The notes under the pieces were generated by a model, which worked only from the letters and a program-made list of their open reading frames with translations, did no database searches and was not told the DNA's origin. Both the position numbers and the translations under genes were made by a program. Shown one piece after another: positions 5,617 to 62,514 of a stretch of 64,000 nt of DNA. Numbering within the stretch: position 1 is the first letter of the stretch; every line of letters starts with the position of its first letter. The DNA comes from a virus, in IMG/VR virus record IMGVR_UViG_3300043251_000023, positions 1 to 64,000 of that record, one strand, 5' to 3'.

Positions 5617-5835
5617 ATGGTCGCGATCAATGAATCCGTGATCTACAAAAGCATGGCGGGCGAGCCTTGGGATGCGACAGTCGTCCGCGTCGGTCCTCCG
5701 GGATATGTCGACGTCACGCTTTCCGGTCCGTTCCTTCGTGAGCCGTTCGAACTTCACGCCGTTCGGTGGTACGACGATCCGGACGAGCCGAAGTCCGGAG
5801 CGCGGCCATGCGGGAAACAATATTCAGGAAAATAG
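5617..5835 (+). CDS. hypothetical protein
   Basis: 72-aa ORF with GGAG RBS, in operon order. Confidence 0.45.
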   Translation: MVAINESVIYKSMAGEPWDATVVRVGPPGYVDVTLSGPFLREPFELHAVRWYDDPDEPKSGARPCGKQYSGK

Positions 5836-5847
5836 TTTTTCTGGGTC

Positions 5848-5877
5848 TTGACGGCGTTCGCTTAAAACGCTTACATA
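5848..5877 (+). promoter_or_regulatory. putative sigma70 promoter with an inverted repeat in the spacer
   Basis: TTGACG (5848-5853), then AT-rich TTACATAAAA from 5871; GCGTT-N7-AACGC dyad at 5854-5870. Confidence 0.5.
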
Positions 5878-5883
5878 AAATTT

Positions 5884-6096
5884 ATGACCGCAGCAGACGT
5901 GCGGAGAATGTTGCAACGGGCTTGTGAAAGAGCCGGGAGCCAACGCGCATGGGCGCGTGAGCATTCGGTTTCCGTTGTTTACGTCAATGACGTTTTAAGC
6001 GGAAACCGCGAGCCTGGCCCTGCGATTTTACAAGCGTTTGGGCTGGAAGCGGAGCGGCGCACCACATATAGGAAAAAAGGGCAACCAAATGGCTGA
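5884..6096 (+). CDS. Cro/Xre-like helix-turn-helix protein
   Basis: GSQRAWAREHSVSVVYVNDVLSGNREPGPAILQAFGL HTH pattern. Confidence 0.8.
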   Translation: MTAADVRRMLQRACERAGSQRAWAREHSVSVVYVNDVLSGNREPGPAILQAFGLEAERRTTYRKKGQPNG

Positions 6097-6718
6097 GCGC
6101 ACCATCGAGATTCCTGAAATCAAACTAGACCGGATCACCGTCAAGGTCGTTGGCACGTCGCCGCTGCTCACGAATCGGTTCGGCGAAAACGCCATTACGT
6201 CCATCGAAAACAAACAACAGAAAAAGGCCAAGGGCGTGAAGGAGGCGCGCGACCCCCACGCGGAGTTTGTCGAAAAACTGCATGTCATAAAAGCAGGTAA
6301 AAGCGATCTTGATGGCACGTTCGGCTATCCGTCCATCGGCATCAAAAAGTGTCTTGTCGTTGCCGGTGGGCGGTTCGCCGACGAAAAGATGACGCATCTG
6401 CGCGGCGCGATCAACATTCTCGGCAGCCTCATCGAAATCAAATCGCCACCCCCGACCATGCGGACGGACACCGTGCGCCTGCAGGGCGGCGTGACCAGCA
6501 TCGCCTATCGGCCGTCGTTCTGGCCGTGGGAAATGGAAATTCCGGTTGTGTATAACGCAGGCATCATCGGCCCCGCGCAAATCCTCAACCTTTTCCAGAT
6601 TGCCGGTTTTGCGGTAGGATTCGGCGCATGGCGCCCCGAACTTAACGGCGTGTTCGGCCAGTTCGTTTTGAAGGATTCCGCCGAAGTCCAGACGAAAGGA
6701 CGGGCCAAGGCGGGATAA
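6089..6718 (+). CDS. stand-alone RAMP/Cas7-like RNA-binding protein (Vipr-like guide-binding effector)
   Basis: N-terminal strand ITVKVVGTSPLL, YPSIGIKKCL, YRPSF.PWEMEIPV and a C-terminal glycine-rich loop AGFAVGFGAWRPELNGVFGQF; no other cas genes; directly followed by the pentamer array. Confidence 0.8.
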   Translation: MAERTIEIPEIKLDRITVKVVGTSPLLTNRFGENAITSIENKQQKKAKGVKEARDPHAEFVEKLHVIKAGKSDLDGTFGYPSIGIKKCLVVAGGRFADEKMTHLRGAINILGSLIEIKSPPPTMRTDTVRLQGGVTSIAYRPSFWPWEMEIPVVYNAGIIGPAQILNLFQIAGFAVGFGAWRPELNGVFGQFVLKDSAEVQTKGRAKAG

Positions 6719-7251
6719 AACACAAGAGCAGACTCGATTTGCTATGCGTTGAACAGACCTTAAGACAGTCAACGAGCATCTGTAGCGAAAAGAAAACAGG
6801 CGCATAGATCGGAGCGGACTCGACAACACTACACAACAAGAGAAAAGTTTAATCCATTTGCCAATAGAGGAGATTAGCAAACTAAGGACGCGACGAGAAT
6901 CGAGAACACGCGAAATGCTTTGTCCATTTGCTATAAGAAAAGCTGAGAGCAAATTTGCGTAGCCTAGCCTTGACACGCAAAGCATCGACGTGAGAACCGC
7001 TGAAATGAAAAGTTTAATTCCTTTGCCATCTGAATGGAGCCGACACGAGGCGAGGCGCGGAGAAAACCCGTGACGACAAATGAAAAGTTTAAACAATTTG
7101 GGCATTTGATAAGAAAAGCTTAGCTGTGACGACAATGGACAACCGAACAACCGAGAAGAAATGTTTTTGTTTGGCCCTTTATCAAAAGAGCCGATTTGCG
7201 TTGCAGAGACGCGCGTAGAAATGTCGTCACGACAATCGAGATGAAATGTCT
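6715..7251 (+). repeat. array of seven tracts of 5-nt units (NG[A/C] or AC[A/C] triplet + variable NN), mostly separated by conserved NGAAA-WGYTT + ~10-nt ...TTTG linkers
   Basis: by my count 71 of 91 core pentamers have G at position 2, 15 more start AC, and none has G at position 3; phase is unbroken over 6781-7090; linkers AATCCATTTG 6851, TGTCCATTTG 6921, AATTCCTTTG 7016, AAACAATTTG 7091, degenerate at 7167. Confidence 0.92.
6715..7251 (+). ncRNA. putative multi-guide precursor RNA (gapped-code guides) for the adjacent RAMP protein
   Basis: the variable dinucleotides of six tracts decode to conserved transposase or mobile-element protein motifs; transcription and processing are not shown. 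Confidence 0.75.
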
Positions 7252-8307
7252 ATATCGATCAAAGAGTATTTTGCGCTGGCTGGAACGTCGTTCACCAACG
7301 ACGATGCGCGGGTTATCGGCCCGGTTCTCCAAGAGATTGCCACCGATGGTAGCGTGACCGCAGAGGCGGTCGTGCAGGCCGCGCATTCCGCAAATAGCCC
7401 ACTGCGCAGCTATTTCGAGTGGGACGACAAAAAGGCTGCTCACCAATATCGAGTCGGCCAAGCCAACTACATGATAAACGCTGTCCGCGTGCGCTTTGTC
7501 AGCGCCGGCAAGGAATATGCGACGCGCGCTTATCGGGTTGTCACCAAGCAGTACGAAGGCGACGCGGCCGGATGGGATGAAGACGAGCGATCCGTCGAAA
7601 TCGTGCGGTCGCCGAACGATGAAATCTTGGCCGCGCTGCGGGAGGTTGATGCGTGGCGCGTCAAATATGCTCACCTTTCCACCTTCCAGAATGCCAAATC
7701 GTTTTTGGTGCCGATCTTCAACCAGATTGCCGAGTTCCGCGCGGATTTGGCTGGCAAAGAGGCTATGCCCATAGACGGGGCGCTCGGCGAGCTTACCCAA
7801 TGGGTTCAAAAATATGGCGACGCCGATGCCGTGTCCGCCTCTGCTCTCCTTGGCGAGCACATTCACTACATGGTGGAGGCGATCAACGAGTCCTGGGAAA
7901 ACTTTGGACGCTTCAAGCATGATCCGGCATTGCGTCGGTCTCTGGTGGAGGAAGAAAACGAGGAATTGCGCGAGCGCGTCCGGATTTTGGAGGAGATGTT
8001 AAACGGGAAGGAAAGTCTGCCGCCGGAATTGAGGTTGACCGCAAGCGAGGAGCGCGTCGTGTCAGCCCTGCTGTCGCGAGACGTTATGACCAAAGAGGCC
8101 ATTTCGATGGCGCTCTATTCCGACCGCCCCGATGTTGCGCCAGAATTAAAAATTGTCGACGTATTCGTGTGCAAAATCAGAGCGAAGATTGAATCGCACG
8201 GGTTGAAAATCGAAACGCATTGGGGACGCGGCTATTCGATGCCGGCGGAGAGTAAGCAAGAGCTGCGCGGCATGATCGCCGCGCGCAAAGAGGCCGCAGC
8301 GGCATGA
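7246..8307 (+). CDS. RAMP-associated partner domain fused to an OmpR/PhoB (CtrA-like) winged-helix DNA-binding domain
   Basis: N-terminal VTAEAVVQAA...SPLRSYFEWDDKKAAHQYR motif; C-terminal LTASE...LYSDRPDVAPELKIVDVFVCKIRAKI...IETHWGRGY. Confidence 0.75.
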   Translation: MSISIKEYFALAGTSFTNDDARVIGPVLQEIATDGSVTAEAVVQAAHSANSPLRSYFEWDDKKAAHQYRVGQANYMINAVRVRFVSAGKEYATRAYRVVTKQYEGDAAGWDEDERSVEIVRSPNDEILAALREVDAWRVKYAHLSTFQNAKSFLVPIFNQIAEFRADLAGKEAMPIDGALGELTQWVQKYGDADAVSASALLGEHIHYMVEAINESWENFGRFKHDPALRRSLVEEENEELRERVRILEEMLNGKESLPPELRLTASEERVVSALLSRDVMTKEAISMALYSDRPDVAPELKIVDVFVCKIRAKIESHGLKIETHWGRGYSMPAESKQELRGMIAARKEAAAA

Positions 8308-9038
8308 AACCTTTGCGTCGATTTGCAGATCATGGCGACGCCGGCGCGCCTTACTCACTGGCCCCGTCGCATATCGCCGCGCGGCTTGGCACAAGCCTTT
8401 ATCGCGAAGGGCGCCTAGGCTTCCCCAAGGGCAAAACGCTCCTAACCAGCGGCCATAACAATCGCAAGATCGGCGCCGTCATCCAAAAGGGTAGATGGAA
8501 GGGCTACCCGGTCTTTACCTTGACCCTGGAGGAACGCGCCACCTGTCCGCGCTCATGCGCGCATTGGCTCGATTGCTACGGTAACAAGATGAACTGGCCT
8601 ACTCGATGGATGAATGACGCGGACCTGATACCGACAATCGGTAGGAACCTATCGGATTTATCGAGAAACGTCCCGAATTTCGTTATCCGGCTTCATGTCC
8701 TTGGCGACTTTTATTCAGTCGCCTACGTCGAGCAATGGGCGCGATGGCTCGATGAATTTTCCGGCTTGCACGTCTACGGCTACACGGCTTGGCAGCCGGA
8801 TACTGCGATCGGTCGCACCGTCGCCGCACTCGCGGAAGCCCGCTGGGATCGTTTTGCGGTTCGCACGTCGAACGGCGTCGTGGCCGAACGCACGACTGCC
8901 ACGATCTACGAGGCCAACGCCAGCGGCCAAATAAATGGCGGCACGGTCTGTCCGGTACAGACAGGAAAAACCGAATGTTGCGCGACGTGTGCTTTATGCT
9001 GGCAGACGCAGAAGCGCATCATCTTCCTGGCGCACTAG
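8304..9038 (+). CDS. GP88-like Cys-rich phage protein
   Basis: TCPRSCAHWLDCY, IRLHVLGDFYS, C-terminal CPVQ...CCATCALCW. Confidence 0.6.
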   Translation: MKPLRRFADHGDAGAPYSLAPSHIAARLGTSLYREGRLGFPKGKTLLTSGHNNRKIGAVIQKGRWKGYPVFTLTLEERATCPRSCAHWLDCYGNKMNWPTRWMNDADLIPTIGRNLSDLSRNVPNFVIRLHVLGDFYSVAYVEQWARWLDEFSGLHVYGYTAWQPDTAIGRTVAALAEARWDRFAVRTSNGVVAERTTATIYEANASGQINGGTVCPVQTGKTECCATCALCWQTQKRIIFLAH

Positions 9039-14629: not shown

Positions 14630-15090
14630 GCACAGTAAGGACGCTAGCATGGAAAAGAAACCCCACAAAGTTATGACCCGCGAAGAATACGCGGCAATGC
14701 CAATCCTCGGCTGGCATGAAGTCTGCCGCGACGTGGATGGATTTGGGGGTATAGGCGTTCGTTTCTTAGAACAAAAACGGTCGCGCGGCGGCTCCAAGGT
14801 TTCGATTATCGGCAAAGGATGGTCGACTCGCAGGCGTTCAAAATATTTGCAGCCCGTAAAATCACGGGGTTAACGCTTATGCGCTGCAAGATTGACGGTT
14901 GGCTTAACAATGACAACTGCACCGTCGCGTGCGAGTGCCACCTTGACCCACGCAACAATGGTCGGCAGGCAGGCCCCCTGATGGTCCGACACATCATCGA
15001 CGGCCACGAGGTTCTGTTGCCGGCAGACGCGCAATTCGACCGCGATGATCTTGGCGGCACGTATTGAAAACAGGCACAGTCAGGACGTTA

Positions 15091-15885
15091 ATGCCCAGAA
15101 TCGAGACCATAGGCGCCGCGACACTCTATCTCGGAGACTGCGGCGAGATATTGCCGACGCTCGACGGTATAGACATCGCCGTCACTAGCCCGCCCTACAA
15201 TCTCGGCAGCGCGCCTTGGGCTCACCTGGGGCACTGGAAGCCCGGCAATGCGGCCGGCGCAGGGGGACGAGCAAAATGGAAATCGGGCGCCAGCAGCGAC
15301 GGCGTCGCCTACGGCGAGCATGACGACACAATCCCATGGGCGGAATACGTCGCATGGCAGCAATCCATCGTGTCTCTGATCTGGGATGCGCTTGCCGATA
15401 ACGGCGCGCTGTTTTTCAACCACAAGCCTCGCGTGATAGGCACGAAACTGTGGACCCCTTTAGAGCTGATCCTGCCGCCGGCGGAGTTGCGCCAGATCAT
15501 AGTGTGGTCGCGGCCGGGAGGAATGAACTACAGCCCAGCCTCGTTCGTACCCACGCATGAATGGATTTTATTGCTGGCAAAGCCTGCATTCCGCCTCAAG
15601 TCGAAGGGCGTTTCAGGCCTCGGCGACGTGTGGCCCATGCGCCCGGAAAAGAACGAGCATCCGGCGCCGTTCCCGATCGATCTTCCGGCGCGCGTGCTCG
15701 AAGCAACCGCGGGTAAGACCGTCCTTGATCCGTTCATGGGTTCTGGCACGACGGGCGTTGCCTGCGCCCGCACCGGCCGAAGGTTTATCGGCATCGAGAA
15801 AGACCGCCGCTGGTTTGATCTTGCCTGCGAGCGAATTGATCTGGCGTCACGTCAGCCCGACATGATTGCTGAAAACAGGCACTAA
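15091..15885 (+). CDS. beta-class N4-cytosine/N6-adenine DNA methyltransferase
   Basis: LYLGDC, VTSPPYN, HPAPFP, VLDPFMGSGTTGVAC, FIGIE. Confidence 0.92.
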   Translation: MPRIETIGAATLYLGDCGEILPTLDGIDIAVTSPPYNLGSAPWAHLGHWKPGNAAGAGGRAKWKSGASSDGVAYGEHDDTIPWAEYVAWQQSIVSLIWDALADNGALFFNHKPRVIGTKLWTPLELILPPAELRQIIVWSRPGGMNYSPASFVPTHEWILLLAKPAFRLKSKGVSGLGDVWPMRPEKNEHPAPFPIDLPARVLEATAGKTVLDPFMGSGTTGVACARTGRRFIGIEKDRRWFDLACERIDLASRQPDMIAENRH

Positions 15886-27482: not shown

Positions 27483-27684
27483 AATCGGCGAATCAACAGG
27501 GAAAATTTCCAATGCAATCTCTACTAGATGCGATATGGCAGGAAAGGCACCTTGTCGGGGTGGCCGCTGGCTATACGATATGCAATGCCTTTCACGGCAA
27601 CCTTGATCTTGTGCCGCTCAATATCGCCATTTCAATCGGTTATATTTGGGCCGTTCATCGCTGGCGCCCCTACAAGTTACTGCA

Positions 27685-28260
27685 ATGAGGCTCCGCGACA
27701 CGAACAAGCACCAAGACCTCGGCGAACTAAAGACGTTCGTCAATCTCGCGGTCGAACTCGACGTCCGGCGCTATCTCGAAATCGGAAGCCGCAACGGCGA
27801 CTCGTTCTTCGCGGTGATGGCGAACCTCCGGCCGGGCGCGTTCGGCATGTCGATTGACCTGCCGGAGAACGCGGAGACGATGGGGCGCATGGCTGCGACG
27901 CTTATCGAACTGCGCAACATGGGCCAGCGGACGGCCTTGCTCTATGAATCATCGCGGGAAACGTCCGCGTTGTGGGCGGCGAAGGCGAACGCGCCGTTCG
28001 ATCTTGTCCTGATCGACGGCGACCATACCTACGGCGGCGTAATCTCGGACTGGACCGATTATCAGGCGTTCGGGAAGGTCGTGGCCGTGCACGACATCGA
28101 CGCGCCGGCGGGATGGAAGTCGAGCGGCTTGCCGAACGAGGTCGGGCGGTTCTGGCGAGAACTCAAATCCGGCCTTCACACGCCGCCGCGCGCCGCGCAC
28201 GAGGCCCGCGAGTTCATCACGCCCGGCTCGAAGATGGGCTATGGGGTTGTTTTCCGATGA
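27685..28260 (+). CDS. class I SAM-dependent methyltransferase (Methyltransf_24-like)
   Basis: YLEIGSRNGDS, FDLVLIDGDHTY, VAVHD. Confidence 0.85.
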   Translation: MRLRDTNKHQDLGELKTFVNLAVELDVRRYLEIGSRNGDSFFAVMANLRPGAFGMSIDLPENAETMGRMAATLIELRNMGQRTALLYESSRETSALWAAKANAPFDLVLIDGDHTYGGVISDWTDYQAFGKVVAVHDIDAPAGWKSSGLPNEVGRFWRELKSGLHTPPRAAHEAREFITPGSKMGYGVVFR

Positions 28261-61611: not shown

Positions 61612-61707
61612 CGATTTCTGTTAGGTGTTGTGCCGAAGACACAGCCTCGGCGCGACTCGGCGTGTAGGATGCCCCCGTAAATTTTCAACAACAGGGGAGT
61701 CATCCCA

Positions 61708-62514
61708 ATGACGCGCAAGTTTCTCCTGGCGACGACCGCGCTCGTCGCTCTGAGCGCCTCCGCTTTCGCCGCCGATCTTCCGTTGAAAGCACCGCCTGCC
61801 GCTCCTGCTGCTGCCGGTTCCGGCTGGTACGTTGGCATTCTCACCGAAGCCGACGTTGCTCAATCGAACGTGAGTGGCACGAACGTATTCGCGACCAGCC
61901 TCGCCAGCGGTAATCTGACCGCAACCGGCGGCGCCGTGGGTGGCGAGTTCGGCTATATCGGGAATGGTCCCATCGGGTGGTATCGACTTCAGGCCACTGG
62001 CGAATGGAGCGACATTTCTGGCGCCGAGACCGTTCAATCGACGGCAACGACCAGCGCGGCGAGTGCAGCCGTTGCGAGCCGATGGTCCGCGACCCAAGAG
62101 TTCGACATCGGCTTCGAGTGGATTCAAAAAATCTACGCGGCGCTACCGACTCTCGGCGTCATCAACTTCCCGACGTTTACTCCGATCACGCCGACAGTCC
62201 CCGTCGGGGCACCGCGCCAGTACGTTGGCGTCGGCATCAAGGAAGCCGGCCTAACCGGCACCTTTGGCGCCGCTCAGGGTACCTCTGTCGGCGTCTACCC
62301 GATGATCACCGGCGGCTTCATCTGGCCAACGCTCAACGCGGCCGGCAAGCCGAACGGTGGCGCGATCGACGCCTCCGCCGGCGTGGCGTTTCCGGTCAAG
62401 GGATTCACCGTGGGGAACGCCTTCGCGACGGATGGTGCCCCTCTGACGCTCGGCGCTGGCGCTAGCCTCGGCACGCAGTACTGGACCCGGCTGAGCTACC
62501 AGTTCGGCCTGTGA
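61708..62514 (+). CDS. outer-membrane beta-barrel (rhizobial porin/Omp-like)
   Basis: signal peptide + AADLPLKAPP...GWYVG; C-terminal RLSYQF. Confidence 0.8.
   Translation: MTRKFLLATTALVALSASAFAADLPLKAPPAAPAAAGSGWYVGILTEADVAQSNVSGTNVFATSLASGNLTATGGAVGGEFGYIGNGPIGWYRLQATGEWSDISGAETVQSTATTSAASAAVASRWSATQEFDIGFEWIQKIYAALPTLGVINFPTFTPITPTVPVGAPRQYVGVGIKEAGLTGTFGAAQGTSVGVYPMITGGFIWPTLNAAGKPNGGAIDASAGVAFPVKGFTVGNAFATDGAPLTLGAGASLGTQYWTRLSYQFGL

Follow-up and report, generated by a model that had tools for sequence, protein, structure and literature searches.

The stretch of phage DNA analyzed here (the window) comprises positions 1 to 64,000 of IMG/VR virus record IMGVR_UViG_3300043251_000023, a complete genome of 73,543 bp with direct terminal repeats. 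Between two plus-strand genes, it contains a 527-bp gap (6719-7245) occupied by an array with a five-base rhythm. The gene upstream encodes a 209-aa Cas7-like RAMP protein (6089-6718), and the gene downstream encodes a 353-aa protein with a winged-helix domain (7246-8307). Given that the upstream Cas7-like protein matches the Vipr protein of Escherichia phage SUSP1 (E 6.7e-15), we are highly confident that the locus is a VIPR (Viral Interference Programmable Repeat) system, which consists of a vipr gene, an array of six guides (vrRNA) and a candidate gene for a DNA-binding accessory protein. The vipr gene is listed as an open reading frame (ORF) at 6038-6718, and it likely starts at the ATG of 6089, since this is where an alignment of five relatives starts. 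The genes, guides and other elements of the locus are all encoded on the plus strand.

According to two preprints of 2026, VIPR is a CRISPR-related, RNA-guided DNA silencer built on a phage-borne protein, Vipr, which polymerises along a vrRNA made up of 9-16 YNNGG repeats and a 3' tail, with one protomer for each pentamer. The protein is a small, stand-alone RAMP whose parts include an RRM core, a thumb and a glycine-rich loop. Vipr buries the GGY bases, and the NN bases pair with double-stranded DNA, of which every third base is skipped (10.64898/2026.04.26.720920, 10.64898/2026.04.26.720927). The former preprint reports that the skip falls mostly at the wobble position, that targets occur on both strands and that the own contig is not hit. 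It also describes seven types and accessory vap genes (families vap1-6), which are often DNA-binding; it allows 'a related consensus' for the pentamers, and it assigns to loci lacking YNNGG 'NNNGG, YNNNG, and NNNNG repeats' (10.64898/2026.04.26.720920). In the preprint work, targets were searched with nhmmer at a threshold of at least 80% of the read dinucleotides. The exemplars of type II are those of Escherichia phage SUSP1 and a Pseudomonas fulva prophage, and the reported bench tests concern the GGY-type guides of two systems. A third preprint reports that the SUSP1 system immobilises a satellite by taking its excision recombinase as the target (10.64898/2026.10.15.759431).

The gap stands out by its composition, with a GC content of 0.425-0.46 against 0.525-0.625 in the flanks and a plus strand that is far richer in A than in T. 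The motif GAAAWG[T/C]TT marks the start of units at 6842, 6912, 7007, 7082, 7158 and 7243, and the last of these anchors contains the start codon of the downstream gene. We set the register in steps of five from each anchor and counted bases over all 80 pentamers of 6842-7242. Position 1 was G in 53 and C in 14 pentamers, that is, G or C in 67 of the 80; position 2 was A in 46 and G in only two; positions 3 and 4 were free to take any base; and at position 5 only five pentamers had G. All tracts share one polarity, and the proposal made in the sequence-only reading of this DNA, that each pentamer consists of a scaffold triplet and two read bases and leaves one target base unread, held on independent decoding. 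Tandem Repeats Finder detected almost nothing in the array, because only one or two letters are fixed in each pentamer.

Directly downstream of vipr, the array begins with a leader (6719-6776), which is conserved in an alignment with the two closest relatives, L010 and L011, and has short repeats in common with the unit at 7187-7210. After it come six tracts, each 10-15 pentamers long. Five of the six are followed by a conserved inter-guide element of 20-26 nt (6842-6861, 6912-6931, 7007-7026, 7082-7107 and 7158-7182), for which an alignment of 13 elements from three phages gave the consensus GAAAWG-TTT-N(2-8)-CCATTTGCC; the fourth carries one extra base, which shifts the register by one. After the last tract, the start of the next gene takes its place. 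The element, which may serve as a 3' tail or as a 5' handle, is missing upstream of guide 1 and downstream of guide 6, though both of these guides have real targets.

At least four of the six guides are aimed at two families of DDE transposase homologues, guides 5 and 6 at an IS1-like family and guides 1 and 3 at an IS1595-type family. For all external targets, only a skip of 1 nt was considered. The first ten read dinucleotides of guide 6 (7183-7242), with N at the skipped bases, matched IMG/VR viral contigs exactly in 66 places. These all fall on a single homologous site, the antisense of the codons M-R-R-F-T-R-L-T-N-A in an open frame with a median length of 300 aa. In all 66, the guide corresponds to the template strand and the skipped base falls at codon position 3. 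The sites comprise 57 distinct 29-mers, with two to four different bases at each of the nine skipped positions. One further dinucleotide upstream, outside the search pattern, matches in 62 of the 66 sites, and the last one matches in 14. The whole guide reads as the antisense of (S)-M-R-R-F-T-R-L-T-N-A-F. Since the target match continues through an internal GAAAT, which had been taken as the boundary between two separate guides (6 and 7), guide 6 is to be read as one continuous guide of 12 pentamers.

The targets encode diverged proteins, whose pairwise identity has a median of 55% and ranges from 36 to 100%. Four of the target ORFs (281-312 aa) were found to carry the Pfam domain DDE_Tnp_IS1, one of them together with a weak helix-turn-helix match, and the NCBIfam IS1 model matches the target ORFs below its cutoff. 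Because the skipped base is the codon wobble position, a single guide can cover a diverged gene family, and synonymous change offers no escape. Both points had been anticipated from the letters of the array, and guide 6 bears them out.

Guide 5 (7108-7157; 10 pentamers) was found by sliding windows over all units of three arrays, in which the unit ending at 7158 matched the IS1-like loci. It reads Y-N-F-C-R-I-H-x-T-x, and its site in the same gene lies some 24 codons further downstream than that of guide 6. Its placement is on the coding strand at all 66 loci, 60 of which have the skipped base at codon position 3. At least 7 of its 10 dinucleotides match in 37 of the 66 loci, compared with a maximum of 6 in two shuffles. 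The read dinucleotides of guide 5 are identical in relative L010. In relative L011, the final guide spells D-E-I-W-S-F-V of the IS1-like gene, with a coding-strand placement at 62 of the 66 loci.

We also searched 301 genomes of the order that includes Lichenihabitans and found the exact guide 6 pattern in 10 of them (11 sites), compared with none for a reversed control pattern; one of the 10 genomes also carries a Vipr relative. The IS1-like gene, which encodes a helix-turn-helix and a DDE domain, is present once or twice per bacterial genome where it is found. In four of four rival viral contigs inspected (L196, L199, L216 and L246), genes for head, connector or packaging proteins lie in the same 13 kb as the IS1-like gene, namely terminase and portal genes, or head protease and head-tail adaptor genes. 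Because of this shared 13-kb stretch, the IS1-like target looks like a gene of rival phages rather than a free insertion sequence, and it may have been domesticated as an essential gene of phages instead of being an active insertion sequence. A tblastn search found no IS1-like gene in this phage or in four relatives, and among the INPHARED phages only one distant homologue was present.

The second target family was reached through guides 1 and 3, both on the coding strand. Guide 1 (6777-6841; 13 pentamers; S-x-K-K-G-I-S-A-L-Q-L-Q-R) gave one exact 10-dinucleotide match in viral contigs, where 12 of the 13 dinucleotides match in frame and the target ORF carries the Pfam domain DDE_Tnp_IS1595 (E 1.3e-40). 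Guide 3 (6932-7006; 15 pentamers; Y-K-C-A-F-V-L-L-H-K-I-R-E-A-x), which the sequence-only reading had left undecoded, gave 17 exact 10-dinucleotide matches in metagenome contigs. Sixteen of them lie at the same site of a motif-bearing open frame of 192-384 aa, where 11-14 of the 15 dinucleotides match, and the seventeenth lies in an open frame of 47 aa. At the 16 loci, the best guide 1 match is in frame and 63 nt upstream, with only 4-7 of 13 dinucleotides. Before any domain search, we had presumed that the codon readings of these two guides belong to the helix-turn-helix region of IS1595-type transposases. All four target ORFs tested, three of them for guide 3, then showed the Pfam domains DDE_Tnp_IS1595 (E 1e-34 to 1e-40) and Zn_ribbon_IS1595. 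In the in-frame sites of both guides, the skipped base is again at codon position 3. This agrees with the sequence-only claim that the unread base is the wobble base.

For guides 2 (6862-6911; 10 pentamers) and 4 (7027-7081; 11 pentamers), whose boundaries were set by analogy, a target was not found. Nine dinucleotides of guide 4 gave three unrelated exact matches, which is the chance level, and with up to three mismatches a GC-rich genome gave hundreds of matches, with about half that number for a reversed control, so that this search was uninformative. In 66 contigs, the 10 kb flanking the IS1-like gene on each side contained no match to guides 1-4. Five consecutive read dinucleotides of guide 2 (AA CG CG AT GA, after which guide 2 has only one more, CG) equal the last five of guide 6, which points to a duplication within the array.

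The phage itself is not a target. We searched its genome with all read-base offsets, skips of 0-3 and both strands, and no tract matched it better than shuffled tracts; contiguous blastn of the array against the phage also stayed at the chance level. All 16 guides of three phages were likewise at the chance level in five phage genomes, where shuffles reach at most 8 of 11 dinucleotides. Perfect 5-dinucleotide sub-matches in the phage numbered 8, compared with 7.5 per shuffle, and among the seven that lie in called genes the skipped base was at codon position 1 in six and at position 3 in one. Matches inside the window can therefore be no valid basis for the assignments made in the sequence-only reading, and whatever was matched there is no real target. 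In the 66 target loci of 3 kb, by comparison, shuffled guides matched at most 7 of 11 dinucleotides, and shuffled windows of eight dinucleotides matched a mean of 0.10 of the 66 loci.

The targets outside the phage do confirm that the array is of mixed strandedness, with guides 1, 3 and 5 in the coding and guide 6 in the template orientation. The guide-by-guide list of strands given previously did not survive, since only one (guide 7) of the four guides called by both analyses (1, 5, 6 and 7 in the earlier numbering) was assigned to the same strand. The use of both strands bears directly on the nature of the target. Because guides 1, 3 and 5, that is, three of the four decoded guides, have the sense of the target mRNA and cannot pair with it, a DNA rather than an mRNA target is supported, as had been argued from the sequence and in agreement with the published VIPR work.

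We considered whether the gap could instead be an element that acts at the DNA level in a replication module, either an origin of replication with iterons or clustered binding sites for the host CtrA or a phage CtrA-like protein. The region is AT-richer than its surroundings, and it lies downstream of a primase/helicase gene and a primosomal-type gene and upstream of the winged-helix gene. In addition, it holds five copies of a conserved box of about 20 nt containing TTTAATCCAT, which is similar to TTAACCAT, a sequence that we take to be the CtrA half-site. Clusters of intergenic CtrA sites are known from alphaproteobacterial phages (PMC9437464). However, the full TTAA-N7-TTAA motif occurs neither in the gap nor in the 73.5-kb genome, only four TTAA are present in the 527 bp, and the boxes are spaced by 70-95 bp, unlike iterons. 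This explanation also accounts neither for the five-base rhythm and the conservation of positions 3-4 nor for the exact gapped matches to foreign coding motifs, and we regard it as very improbable.

Slightly less probable still is that the array encodes small antisense RNAs directed at mRNA instead of DNA. Guide 6 is indeed antisense to the mRNA of its target, and the SUSP1 system is reported to form a guide duplex with single-stranded RNA in vitro (10.64898/2026.04.26.720927). However, this idea fails for the three mRNA-sense guides, and a gapped pairing of two bases in three would be unstable without a protein. In the SUSP1 work, moreover, the filaments on RNA targets were mostly incomplete, and either strand could be used for silencing (10.64898/2026.04.26.720920, 10.64898/2026.04.26.720927).

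The least probable of the three is a non-functional relic, either a decayed pentanucleotide microsatellite or a row of tiny ORFs (ATG-AAA-AGT-TT..., MKSLI.LP) that are copies of a translation start. In its favour, the unit lengths are multiples of 5 (70, 95, 75, 60 and 25), and several units open with an ATG in a GAAATG context resembling that of the next gene. Against it, decay would erase all five positions alike, but in this array position 1 is retained and positions 3-4 vary freely; the ATGs stand in different frames across the units, and tracts in multiples of 5 nt keep no frame. Nor are the 66 and 17 exact gapped matches to conserved codons outside the phage predicted by either version.

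The identification as VIPR is supported by the protein. A profile of 70 homologues matched PDB 36pp_D, annotated as 'SUSP1 Vipr protein', over residues 4-188, and this was the sole solved structure matched. The AlphaFold2 model of the protein (pLDDT 94.8, pTM 0.88) gave as its top Foldseek matches Cas7-type Csm3/Cmr4 chains of type III CRISPR systems (E ~4e-7, TM ~0.5), in a structure library that ends in April 2026 and apparently holds no VIPR entries. The protein belongs to PHROG 4652, of unknown function, and has 2661 homologues at E <= 0.001 in a library of 1.84 billion proteins. It retains the arginine of the YRP motif and the G-loop motif G-x-G-x-W-R-P, whose W and R, with that arginine, hold the second G in SUSP1.

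The scaffold of this array differs from the published one, and so do the residues that would read it. To compare the two, the register was mapped so that the conserved G/C corresponds to the second G of the SUSP1 scaffold, the A after it to Y and the base before it to the first G, with positions 3-4 as the read pair. The scaffold triplet is then [A/C/T]-[G/C]-A, compared with G-G-Y in SUSP1, and G is avoided at the position of the old first G (5 of 80). In SUSP1, the first G is reported to be read by H17 and D177 and the second by R138 and W178 (10.64898/2026.04.26.720927). These four residues align to N, A, R and W in the Vipr protein of this phage, and all five close relatives also have N and A at the H17 and D177 positions. 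The equivalent of R138 is present in 70 of 70 family members and that of W178 in 61. The pocket residues also co-vary among the 70 family members: H occurs with D or E in 33 of 35 cases, and N with A, S or C in 20 of 28. Judging from these aligned sequences, the lost contacts to the first G would fit guides that retain only the second G.

Comparison with related phages points to selection on the code. Nineteen differences were found in 31 orthologous pentamer pairs, distributed as 3, 8, 1, 1 and 6 over positions 1-5, so that only two fall in read bases. The read bases are thus held and the loosely fixed scaffold bases drift. In the more distant relative L013, the rhythm again has G/C at position 1, and position 2 is C more often than A; therefore, the scaffold letters drift within the clade.

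Several observations weigh against assigning this locus to VIPR, or against parts of that assignment. The scaffold is not the published GGY, and it places A, a purine, at Y3, where the SUSP1 pocket is said to exclude purines. The target of guide 1 rests on a single exact locus. Guide 3, searched with 15 dinucleotides and up to three mismatches, had no match in 121 genomes of the presumed host order, and with nine dinucleotides it had no exact match in viral contigs; guides 2 and 4 performed no better than shuffles in both sets of target loci. A sigma-70-like promoter was searched for in 5800-8400 and none was found. The inter-guide element of 20-26 nt has no stable predicted fold (z 0.25), and the SUSP1 tail is a pseudoknot of about 40 nt. 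The last guide runs into the start of the accessory gene with no conserved element after it. Among the public sequencing runs listed as containing the locus are seven of DNA, two of which may be its source, and none of RNA. Finally, the only basis for the host is that relatives occur in two metagenome-assembled genomes.

By analogy with the solved SUSP1 complex, we propose that the array is transcribed and processed into guide RNAs, on each of which one Vipr protomer would bind per pentamer to form a helical filament. The scaffold bases would be flipped into protein pockets, and the read dinucleotides would pair with a strand of the target DNA, with every third target base skipped. The resulting R-loop triplex would then block transcription of the target gene. 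The purpose of the system is likely the silencing of rival phages or mobile elements in a shared host. This mechanism has already been published for VIPR and is not new; the locus is a decodable VIPR system with a variant scaffold.

This locus and the published system have several features in common. A small stand-alone, phage-borne RAMP protein homologous to SUSP1 Vipr adjoins a guide array of tandem pentamers, with two read bases each, a 1-nt wobble skip and guides for both strands; self-targets are absent; and a candidate gene for a DNA-binding accessory protein lies next to the array. The targets are found in rival mobile elements and include recombination enzymes, so that the transposases here parallel the excision recombinase of the SUSP1 satellite. 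The main text of the preprint on that satellite does not contain the word 'transposase' (10.64898/2026.10.15.759431), and the initial VIPR preprint has it once, for Cas1 (10.64898/2026.04.26.720920). Unlike the SUSP1 system, the locus keeps only the second scaffold G, as G or C, and thereby fits the 'NNNNG' class, which the methods section of the initial preprint names without detail (10.64898/2026.04.26.720920). It also differs in having an inter-guide element of 20-26 nt without a predicted pseudoknot, a candidate accessory protein with a CtrA-type winged helix, and DDE transposase homologues as targets.

The resemblance to Class 1 CRISPR-Cas backbones (Cas7, Csm3 and Cmr4) extends to the fold, to one protomer per guide segment and to a flipped, unread base at a fixed period. 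In contrast to those systems, the period is 5 rather than 6 and three guide bases are sequestered rather than one. Nor are there identical direct repeats separated by spacers, as in CRISPR-Cas; guide and scaffold are interleaved instead of forming separate blocks. The sites of TRAP, the trp RNA-binding attenuation protein, consist of (G/U)AG triplets every 5-6 nt on single-stranded RNA, which a protein oligomer reads, with spacers that carry no information. A TRAP-like RNA site was our first lead and was dropped, as there is no TRAP-like gene and the 'spacers' here encode foreign codons.

We searched 62 ORFs with Pfam for Cas1, Cas2, Cas6, a reverse transcriptase, an integrase and a large subunit and found none of them, which for Cas1/Cas2, integrase and reverse transcriptase agrees with what had been stated from the sequence. 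PADLOC gave no match for five neighbouring proteins.

The 353-aa protein encoded immediately after the array (7246-8307) is the candidate product of a vap (vipr-accessory) gene. Its N-terminal part is an unknown phage domain (PHROG 15946); a DNA-binding winged helix of the CtrA type, without a receiver domain, forms the C-terminal part. The winged helix matches Pfam Trans_reg_C (E 2.1e-8) and, below its cutoff, the NCBIfam CtrA model (E 4.2e-10); the source databases name relatives of the protein CtrA. Its position after the array is conserved, with a winged-helix homologue following vipr and the gap in six of six related loci, as judged by eye. The CtrA-type domain of this putative accessory protein might tie silencing to the cell-cycle regulon of the host. 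We put forward only tentatively that this clade is a VIPR sub-type of its own, with a joint change of protein and RNA, that the accessory protein is tied to the cell-cycle regulon and that the targeted IS1-like gene has been domesticated.

The genes that flank the gap are syntenic in four viral contigs and in two metagenome-assembled genomes labelled Lichenihabitans, and the host is probably an alphaproteobacterium of the order that holds this genus. In the closest relatives, L010 and L011, a flanking protein is 98% and 91% identical, respectively. Their arrays have the same anchor and rhythm with largely different tract content, and the five-base rhythm with other content is seen in L013 as well. 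Conservation between the window and L010 covers the leader and the final two units. L010 has one unit fewer, and in the alignment it shows no counterpart of the guide 4 unit. Whole-unit replacement, unit gain and loss, and partial duplication are thus seen when the arrays of related phages are compared, a pattern that is compatible with recombination and point change under selection. In the distant relatives (L012, L013, L089 and L090), the gap between vipr and the accessory gene is about 180-300 nt and holds one or two units with a GCAAAG-type anchor. A scan of viral contigs for the anchor motif gave 75 loci, among which real arrays were present only in the two known relatives, and a DNA relative of the locus was not found among the INPHARED phages.

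Within the array of this phage, a perfect 10-nt inverted repeat connects the 3' end of guide 4 (7069-7078) with the middle of guide 6 (7222-7231), and a direct copy of it sits in guide 5 (7126-7142). Because both an inverted repeat and a direct copy are present, we suggest that pieces of guides have been copied between units in both orientations. The sequence-only reading had reasoned that read dinucleotides interleaved with scaffold triplets do not come from simple spacer capture.

These results suggest that the one-base-skip, wobble-aligned code also holds for the loosely described 'NNNNG' class, and that a single guide can serve for gene copies with a median pairwise protein identity of 55% (range 36-100%). 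They also suggest that such phages point several guides, for both strands, at transposase-type genes of their rivals. The locus is a natural, decodable example of VIPR from a lineage of soil alphaproteobacterial phages rather than a new kind of system. If protein and RNA have indeed changed together, then the scaffold code itself would be evolvable, and VIPR types could be mutually orthogonal. The paired change of scaffold letter and G-reading residue offers a testable handle on how the protein sets the code, which could aid the design of mutually orthogonal programmable DNA binders.

Other searches of the region gave little. Rfam yielded no match at the gathering score in 6000-8000, with three weak matches (E 7-9) far under their cutoffs; neither strand of the array folds more stably than shuffles (z 0.25 and -0.47); and the three terminator-like sites in 5800-8400 are all on the minus strand, none of them within 6719-7245. 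On the minus strand, an open frame of 341 aa (6125-7150) runs antisense to vipr and most of the array and is most likely an artefact of the T-poor plus strand, which leaves few stops opposite. The highest period-5 spectral power of the genome is at 61700-62100, inside a 268-aa ORF (61708-62514) with a signal-peptide-like start; this peak was rejected as a guide array, being an unrelated coding region.

The gene after the candidate vap gene (8304-9038) is GP88/DUF7227-like, and in some relatives (P0018-P0020; 519-524 aa) GP88, DUF7227 and CtrA-type domains are fused. The window also encodes three methyltransferases (MT-A70, N6_N4_Mtase and Methyltransf_24, at 1744-2415, 15064-15885 and 27646-28260), and the phage genome contains 220 GANTC sites. 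Together, the methyltransferases and the GANTC sites hint at a CcrM-type host.

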